From contig LXFE01004217.1 in NCBI GenBank assembly GCA_001929475.1, positions 49,048 to 69,047 on the forward strand: a stretch of 20,000 nucleotides of DNA, written 5' to 3'. The notes below the pieces were generated by a model. The model did not search any database. It was not told the DNA's origin and saw only the letters and a program-made list of their open reading frames with translations. Position 1 is the stretch's first letter. Each line of letters starts with the position of its first letter. Shown piece by piece: positions 10,672 to 11,706 of this stretch. The position numbers and the translations under genes were made by a program. The DNA comes from Neolecta irregularis DAH-3 (taxonomy: Eukaryota).

Positions 10672-11706
10672 TCATTGACTCTCAAACTTGAGAGAGTAAT
10701 CTGTATGCATAATACCGCTGTGGAGTGAAGATGTGCTGAATATATCAATTTCTAGTCCGTCAGTGAGATAATTGTGCTGTGATACAACCATTGCATAAGT
10801 ACTCTGAAATATTCGATTCTGTCAACCCTCCGCTACATTCGAGGAGAAAGCGACGTCTGCCTGCCCATTGAGACTTTAGATTTTTCGAGGCAATTTTGAG
10901 TTTAGGCCCAGAAAAATTATCCAGCATTATAATATCTGCTCCAGCTTGTATGGCTTCGTTGGCTTCATCTTCCGTTTTTACCTCCACGTCAATTCTGAGA
11001 GAGAAACCAGCAACTCTTCGAGCAGCTTCAATCGCGCCAGCTATGGTACCTAACAGTTAGTTTATTGGCTGCATTGTTGAATGTCTTCCTTTGGACCAGA
11101 TGTGATTGTCCTTTAGCATTACCATACTGCTCAAATCAAAACGATGAGTATCAACGCCTCCGACGACCATGCCGTATTTTTCAACCAGTCGAAATCCGGG
11201 AGTGGTTTTCCGAGTTCCGGCTATTATACCCCCGTATCCTTTCTGTCTAACTAAATTAATGATACCGCGCGATCTTCCAATCAACACTTGTAATGCACAT
11301 GTCCTACTGTGTGGCGATCCCCGAGCATCGTGCCAGGGTATTCAGAGCAACACGCTCGCCCAAAAGGATTTTCCTCGCGGGGCCTGTTACTGTGGCAATC
11401 ATTACTACAGATCCAGGGTCAAGATCAACATAGCTGCCTTCTATCACTTGCCAATGGACTCTATTCAGCCAAAGCCTTATTTCTGCAGAATGCACCTTTG
11501 CAGCCCAGATAGTCAAACACCTGATCGAAGAATGGCCGTCCTGCAACGACACTGGCGCTTTTGAGCCAGAGCGTGGCTGTCCTGGCGCAATTGCCTACGA
11601 CATACCCGCCATAATCAAAACCCGGACAGTCTTCTCTGAGCCAAGCAACGACAGTCTCCTTCCAGCAGTCCGGAAGAAGGTGCGTAAAATCTTCTTGAGC
11701 TGTCAT
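10672..11706 (-). CDS. BNA6: Nicotinate-nucleotide pyrophosphorylase (quinolinate phosphoribosyltransferase)
   Basis: [66 protein letters not shown]. Introns 11495-11459 (GAG acceptor), 11307-11274, 11088-11050 (GA-AG), 10788-10752. Confidence 0.95.

Follow-up and report, generated by a model that had tools for sequence, protein, structure and literature searches.

A GA-AG intron in the BNA6 gene of Neolecta irregularis and the probable recurrence of GA donors in its genome

The BNA6 gene and its third intron

The window analyzed in this work is a stretch of 20,000 nucleotides from the Neolecta irregularis DAH-3 assembly GCA_001929475.1 (contig LXFE01004217.1, positions 49,048 to 69,047), to which all positions below refer unless otherwise specified. 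Its minus strand harbors a gene with full-length homology, conserved motifs included, to the yeast quinolinate phosphoribosyltransferase (QPRTase, BNA6/NadC; E-value 6e-55); BNA6, PME-1/PPE1 and the other yeast gene names used here are labels which we take to fit the families found. The coding part comprises five exons. Exon 1 (11496..11706), with a presumed start codon, was placed using run X2 (see below) and a homologue alignment, exon 2 (11308..11458) using run X2, and exon 3 (11089..11273), which carries the RKT and KDNH motifs, and exon 4 (10789..11049) using homology together with run X2, whose RNA contig spans 10813-11048 of the latter. Exon 5 (10672..10751) extends to the stop codon and completes a protein of 295 aa according to the sequence and the gene finder, one translation check having ended one codon early. 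Introns 1 (11459..11495, 37 nt) and 2 (11274..11307, 34 nt) are of the GT-AG type both in run X2 and in the gene finder output, and intron 4 (10752..10788, 37 nt) is a GT-AG intron predicted by the gene finder beyond the RNA contig of the gene. Intron 1 ends with GAG although a TAG is located two bases upstream; the latter is probably too near the branch point to be used. Elsewhere in the window, two predicted GC-AG introns (7397-7360 and 6989-6954, minus strand) belong to a single gene, presumably NOP56-like, and the region of about 18500-20000 is a GC-rich repetitive contig end containing short runs of N and a segment that is duplicated locally.

Intron 3 occupies positions 11088..11050 of the minus strand, is 39 nt long, lies in phase 1 and splits the Gly183 codon. 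The preceding exon ends with AAAG and the intron starts with GAAGAC (donor site 11083..11092), the +2 base (11087) being A in both the window and run X1, while the acceptor TTAG (11050..11053) is found in the window sequence and the run data. The motif AACTAAC at 11062-11056 stands out in the sequence and in branch scoring as the putative branch point with 11057 as the presumed branch A, which is located 8 nt before the next exon, within the 7-11 nt usual for U2-type CTAAC motifs in this genome, and an in-frame TAA (11059-11057) sits inside the same motif. An earlier note, made from the letters of the window, had proposed a GA-AG intron at 11050..11088 with this in-frame stop, branch motif, acceptor and phase, all of which are present, and the 39 nt in question are skipped in X2.

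Read in frame, the segment adds 13 codons including one TAA, so its retention would stop the protein at 192 residues, and the read-through form would contain exactly a 13-residue insertion in comparison with the yeast (3c2e, 3c2r) and mammalian (4i9a) QPRTases. Among 120 homologues, the spacer at this site has the length of the spliced form in 110 and is longer at the same place in six, the motif being unmatched in four; the extra length in these six looks like an intron that automatic gene calling has read through. The closest in-phase GT donor (11127) would produce a 78-nt intron at the cost of the conserved KDNH motif, and all the in-frame GT and GC options listed near the site cut conserved coding sequence. 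Base 11087, read as A from the window and X1 alike, rules out a canonical GT-AG intron. Nor does the site fit a U12-type (minor) intron, the GAAGAC donor and the AACTAAC branch motif being unlike the extended U12 consensus; the genome search gave no match for U12 and U6atac snRNAs, though no positive control matched either. No RNA structure beyond that of shuffled sequences was detected around the intron, and the region folds worse than the shuffles (z +1.17).

The spliced protein keeps 108 of the 116 columns that are near-invariant in the 120 homologues and differs in eight. BNA6 is a single-copy gene with an open frame once spliced, and 3-HAO, the upstream enzyme of the pathway, is present in the genome; as part of the overall explanation favored below, the spliced gene would probably give a full-length QPRTase. 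An intron at the same phase-1 Gly was found in 11 of 80 related metagenome loci (ten with GT, one with GC) and in none of the other 69, which argues for an old intron position with a donor changed in this lineage. Either a T-to-A substitution or a deletion of the T may account for the missing +2 T.

Run data at the BNA6 locus

Two runs from one study, X1 and X2, were compared with the window as contigs, over positions 9700-12400 only. The DNA contigs of X1 (depth ~444) contain zero other letters and zero gaps relative to the window over 10713-12400. A miscall at base 11087 had been named in the earlier note as a possible flaw in its proposal; X1 shows no difference from A there, and given this agreement the A is not an assembly slip, with the reservation that X1 may be the assembled sample itself. 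Run X2 is labelled 'DNA?' and was read by us as cDNA because introns are missing from it: two of its contigs omit seven introns across two neighboring genes, six of which are GT-AG and the seventh is the GA-AG intron of BNA6. At this site the X2 contig (depth 172) omits exactly 39 nt, with the flanking exons in agreement with the window. A segment-retaining form, the other outcome that would have told against the proposal, was not found among the X2 contigs at the site, contigs being apt to drop rare forms. Among the GA-AG introns dealt with here, BNA6 alone has RNA support.

One X2 contig spans BNA6 into the divergent plus-strand gene (window 11496-12400), a two-gene contig being no proof of a single transcript, and the other, coming from a Ras-like gene, reaches 10752 over the 3′ end of BNA6. 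These contigs suggest overlapping transcript ends at BNA6.

With three letters assignable to either side of the joint, there are four registers yielding identical mRNA, namely AA..GG, GA..AG, GG..TA and AG..TT, from which we infer GA..AG since it is the only one keeping the first G and the final AG; the neighboring GT-AG joints likewise share 0-4 letters. Overall, BNA6 almost certainly contains a real, spliced GA-AG intron.

GA donors in the genome and components of the spliceosome

A self-trained gene finder was run on 59 stretches of 543,624 bases in total (~544 kb). The stretches were not drawn at random: the sampled contigs were chosen from earlier matches, many of which came from searching for a GA pattern, and such matches include BNA6 and another of the GA calls. 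The gene finder recovers 6/6 GT-AG joints of X2, and in the GT/GC-only mode it picks the wrong 78-nt intron at BNA6. With an equal prior of 0.004 for each of 14 odd donors and 15 odd acceptors, 995 introns were called, including 929 GT-AG, 38 GC-AG (~4%) and 8 GA-AG, the rest having odd ends (one each of AA, CA, AC, GG and TG donors and 15 odd acceptors). A prior of 0.001 left 6 GA-AG among 985 introns, BNA6 not being called at this stricter value. GA accounts for 8 of the 13 odd donors or, without BNA6, for 7/12 versus 8.5% expected (p = 2e-5). When donors were planted, 200 of each kind, the recovery was 90 for GA, 93 for GG, 83 for CA and 81 for TT, which corresponds to a sensitivity of ~45% and means that the method has no GA bias, as planted GA is recovered no better than other odd donors. 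The earlier note had missed this recurrence of GA donors across the genome. The called introns are mostly 32-43 nt long with the branch A 7-11 nt before the next exon, and their donor consensus is weak, with +3 A in 74%, +4 T in 49% and +5 G in 39%; the last two values are seen despite the presence of a METTL16-family gene in the genome.

Homology checks cover five of the eight GA calls, including BNA6 and a carboxypeptidase candidate which fits weakly and is not firmly placed by the alignment, the other three being predictions. In the PME-1 homologue no cut other than the GA one brings back the catalytic Ser codon (12-residue gap), the GA-AG intron of prefoldin 4 fits the homologues closely, and in the mitochondrial tyrosyl-tRNA synthetase (TyrRS) the GA-AG cut makes profile position 222 be followed by 224. 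A separate set of 29 pattern-picked loci contains 3 GA-AG introns out of 98, one in a dynein intermediate chain gene (12-residue gap relative to homologues, no internal stop) and the other two from a glycosyltransferase-25 gene that was called twice on one contig. A GA donor is common to three gene-family copies, G000:C147 (glycosyltransferase 25), C1684 and C2362, whose introns otherwise differ, among other things by one base in length. A further 31.6 kb yielded no GA-AG among 60 introns. Whole-genome GA patterns, which are too loose, showed no enrichment relative to reversed controls (15 vs 47; 166 vs 210), and on frame inspection most of the 15 matches have a GT alternative or lie in no gene; the dinucleotides upstream of 840 branch-plus-AG motifs gave a signal too diluted for GA to be judged. 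The GA-AG share is estimated at about 0.3-2% of introns, with a floor of 3/994 (0.3%) and a sensitivity-corrected ceiling near 2%, and the BNA6 intron very likely belongs to a genome-wide relaxed-donor class.

Several other odd calls were noted. The introns with AA and AC donors (L110:2600-2566, minus strand, and L125:8136-8176, plus strand) each have an in-phase GA located three bases upstream and so may be GA-AG too. Candidate GT-TG introns are located in an MFS transporter gene (L145:4919-4881, minus strand), where the Pfam positions are roughly contiguous, and in a TPR protein gene (L147:9166-9199, plus strand), and a candidate GG-AG intron (L130:5456-5416, minus strand) directly follows an MA3 domain.

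The earlier note had also pointed to the exonic AAG and a strong branch point of BNA6, and both are strong against 911 predicted GT introns: the exonic positions -3..-1 are in the 94th percentile and the branch point in the 81st, with positions +3..+6 being weak (20th). Compared with GT introns, the eight predicted GA introns have a stronger exon context (p = 0.02) but not branch point (p = 0.16), and the detection of GA introns itself favors strong signals. Exonic AG is present in 5/8 of them and +3 A in 8/8, some of these calls being prediction-only, and BNA6 has both. The best U1 duplex at the BNA6 donor (-4.6 kcal/mol) has one U1 base bulged and is in the 58th percentile of the 911 GT donors; bulged U1 registers are cited in PMC6280755, although bulging did not explain the registers of the reporters used there. 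In GT introns, exonic AG is more common without +5 G than with it (178/557 vs 77/354; p = 0.0009), a pattern consistent with a general exon-side compensation in this genome. Compensation for the missing +2 U by the exonic AAG and the branch point would fit the BNA6 data too, and since GA donors recur genome-wide, local compensation of this kind would explain them in part at best.

Both the Rfam profile and the DNA search gave one U1 gene with a canonical 5′ end (43.7 bits, below the Rfam cut-off, E-value 6e-9), so a variant U1 is not supported in this fragmented assembly of 4542 contigs. The ACAGAGA box of U6 and the loop of U5 are canonical too. The U6 snRNA gene (L003; G000:C1963:269-417, minus strand) contains a 50-nt GT-AG intron just past the ACAGAGA box, and fission-yeast U6 carries a similar intron. 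Loss of Prp18 or of the METTL16-family gene was rejected as a cause at the level of gene presence, both genes being found.

Prp8 was examined because in budding yeast the second step is limiting for a donor with A at +2 (U2A), and certain prp8 alleles relieve both U2A and non-consensus 3′ ends. The comparison included 209 homologues with no named ascomycete among them, so some of the changes may be wider fungal traits, and the gene, split over small contigs, was partly covered. The yeast suppressor positions W1575, E1576, Q1594 and W1609 are unchanged, as is the equivalent of C. elegans D1549, an aspartate reported to contact intron +3 in the B complex and to loosen 5′ splice-site identity when mutated. 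The changes found are, in yeast numbering, A1503I (A in 206/207 homologues), Y1504M (207/207), H1635N (208/208), S1660N (205/208) and a cluster at about 1221-1224 of three changes at residues each kept in 192/192 homologues. H1635 lies 7 residues from the D1549 equivalent, and S. pombe retains H1635 and S1660; F1633M is common to S. pombe and was rejected as a special change. The changes at 1503-1504 and 1221-1224 are not errors, as decayed PRP8 copies carry them too. There are many such partial copies (G000:C1324, C4326, C1195, C171, C4303, C2568, C845, C4225, C2227 and others), with ~84-94% DNA identity where compared, stops and frameshifts, and at least one intron kept, whereas the intact-looking PRP8 gene is spread over small contigs. 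One Prp8 segment matches S. pombe best and BNA6 is ~64% identical to Saitoella and equally to other ascomycetes, which would suit an early-branching ascomycete. As a cause of GA use the Prp8 changes may serve as a lead only, and it is rather doubtful that the major spliceosome of this lineage is relaxed at +2 (and at acceptor -2, with two candidates here) through Prp8 with canonical snRNAs; if so, the lineage would offer a natural equivalent of the second-step suppressor alleles of yeast.

Interpretation and comparison with known systems

We consider it likely that intron 3 of BNA6 is a short intron of the ordinary kind and of old origin which has lost the +2 T of its donor, is still removed by the major (U2-type) spliceosome and is one of a genome-wide minority of introns with GA donors. 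Directly supporting this are the genomic GA, the 39-nt removal, the intact frame, the old position, the canonical single U1, U5 loop and U6 box and the GA excess among odd donors. The choice of the intron ends would depend above all on the branch point, on the shortness of the intron and on the exonic AAG, the latter pairing to U1 and U5 loop 1. U1 possibly pairs with the donor in a bulged register, G+1 would preserve the first-to-last-base contact, and the catalytic center may be more tolerant of A at +2 than in budding yeast, with the cut perhaps being determined by length, branch point and exon pairing and the +2 base checked loosely.

A sequencing or assembly error, in which the true donor is GT with its T miscalled or dropped, appears extremely unlikely. 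Inserting one T behind the first G would turn the site into a good consensus donor and the window may have been assembled from the sample of X1, but the X1 contig at depth ~444 has 0 other letters and 0 gaps, X2 skips 39 nt relative to the window with agreeing exons, and further GA donors exist, one of them common to three paralogous copies. The segment length is divisible by three, one stop lies within the segment and 8/116 near-invariant columns differ, as might be expected of a pseudogene or of a retained segment whose TAA is read through or edited; against this, the spliced form is the only one among the contigs, the gene is single-copy with an open frame, and 3-HAO is present, leaving this reading with only a minimal chance. 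It is highly improbable that the 39 nt are removed otherwise than as a GA-AG intron, that is, in another register, by reverse-transcriptase template switching or by a non-spliceosomal cut: only GA..AG keeps G+1 and the final AG, the branch motif is at the usual distance in a region that folds worse than its shuffles, and related loci use GT at the exact same cut. Three letters are indeed repeated across the joint and template switching is named by Frey and Pucker as a possible source of GA-AG calls, yet adjacent GT-AG joints share 0-4 letters as well.

Another explanation is a one-off exception tolerated by an ordinary spliceosome without genome-wide relaxation, as with the ~0.01-0.04% of other fungi and plants. 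Rare GA-AG introns are known in Ganoderma (35 introns, 0.038%), Fusarium and Trema, and the 0/60 of the extra sample, the canonical snRNAs and the presence of Prp18 and a METTL16-family gene agree with this; it is nevertheless unlikely, as the same 995 introns contain three more homology-fitted GA-AG introns which, with one from the pattern-picked loci, bring the rate to 0.3% or more, GA is over-represented among odd donors although the method is not biased toward it, and GC-AG reaches ~4% here versus 1.0% in fungi. A-to-I editing of the +2 base would yield a GG-like donor, not GT, and the Rfam and DNA searches each give one U1 with a canonical 5′ end. Hence a dedicated variant U1 snRNA, or pre-mRNA editing of the +2 base, serving the GA donors has a very slim chance, even if a variant U1 has been proposed for Eurytemora, editing has been named as possible, and an assembly of 4542 contigs could miss a U1 copy.

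With a minority class of GA donors removed by the major spliceosome as the preferred reading, it should be borne in mind that a single GA-AG intron is an exception of a rare but already known type and that the rate is what matters. Should GA indeed open ~1% of the introns of housekeeping genes alongside canonical U1, U5 and U6, this would be a natural case of relaxed +2 recognition bearing on the question of what enforces +2 U, in a fungus related to fission yeast, to which introns and Prp8 changes could be transferred. Since GT/GC-only prediction damages genes with GA introns (in BNA6 it deletes KDNH), pathway inventories of this genome can be wrong. No paper on the splice sites of Neolecta was found in the literature searched, subscription journals and bioRxiv supplements lying outside it, and in the available part of the species genome paper the main text has no splicing term and the supplement matches are intron-density rows, a reference and gene labels; nor was a paper on U4-cs1 suppressor positions found in the same literature, and this lead was dropped.

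[quoted passage not shown] As in these species, GA donors recur in many genes of N. irregularis and mislead gene models, and the one in BNA6 follows exonic AG and has A at +3. In Eurytemora, however, exonic AG is obligate, the introns are thought to be recently gained and a variant U1 is proposed (PMC5714493), whereas here the share is ~0.3-2% (8 GA and 1 GG in 995 at a sensitivity of ~45%, as against ~10% GA/GG), exonic AG is present in 5/8 of the predicted GA introns, the BNA6 position is old, being shared by 11/80 related loci, and one canonical U1 was found in a fragmented assembly.

Among fungi, GA-AG makes up 0.038% of introns in the curated set of Ganoderma lingzhi (PMC11590231), all minor classes together 0.31% in a Fusarium graminearum sample (PMC3577648), and minor classes on average 0.257% across 130 fungi, with GC-AG at 1.0%. 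The dinucleotides, the occurrence in fungal genes and the transcript support are the same as in Ganoderma and Fusarium, but GA-AG is at least about 8-fold more frequent here. Intron 12 of SYMRK in Trema orientalis, with a GA donor, is spliced at ~95% in a functional gene, the GA-AG share of that genome being 0.01% (PMC10668435); it resembles the BNA6 intron as an old intron whose donor turned GA and which is still spliced, and differs in being a single case derived from GC. Finally, the U2A reporter of Saccharomyces cerevisiae, eased together with non-consensus 3′ ends by prp8-156 and prp8-161 (PMC12707134), carries the same change as the BNA6 donor, and paired relaxations are suspected in the N. 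irregularis genome too, although the yeast alleles are laboratory mutants and the suppressor residues named above are unchanged here.
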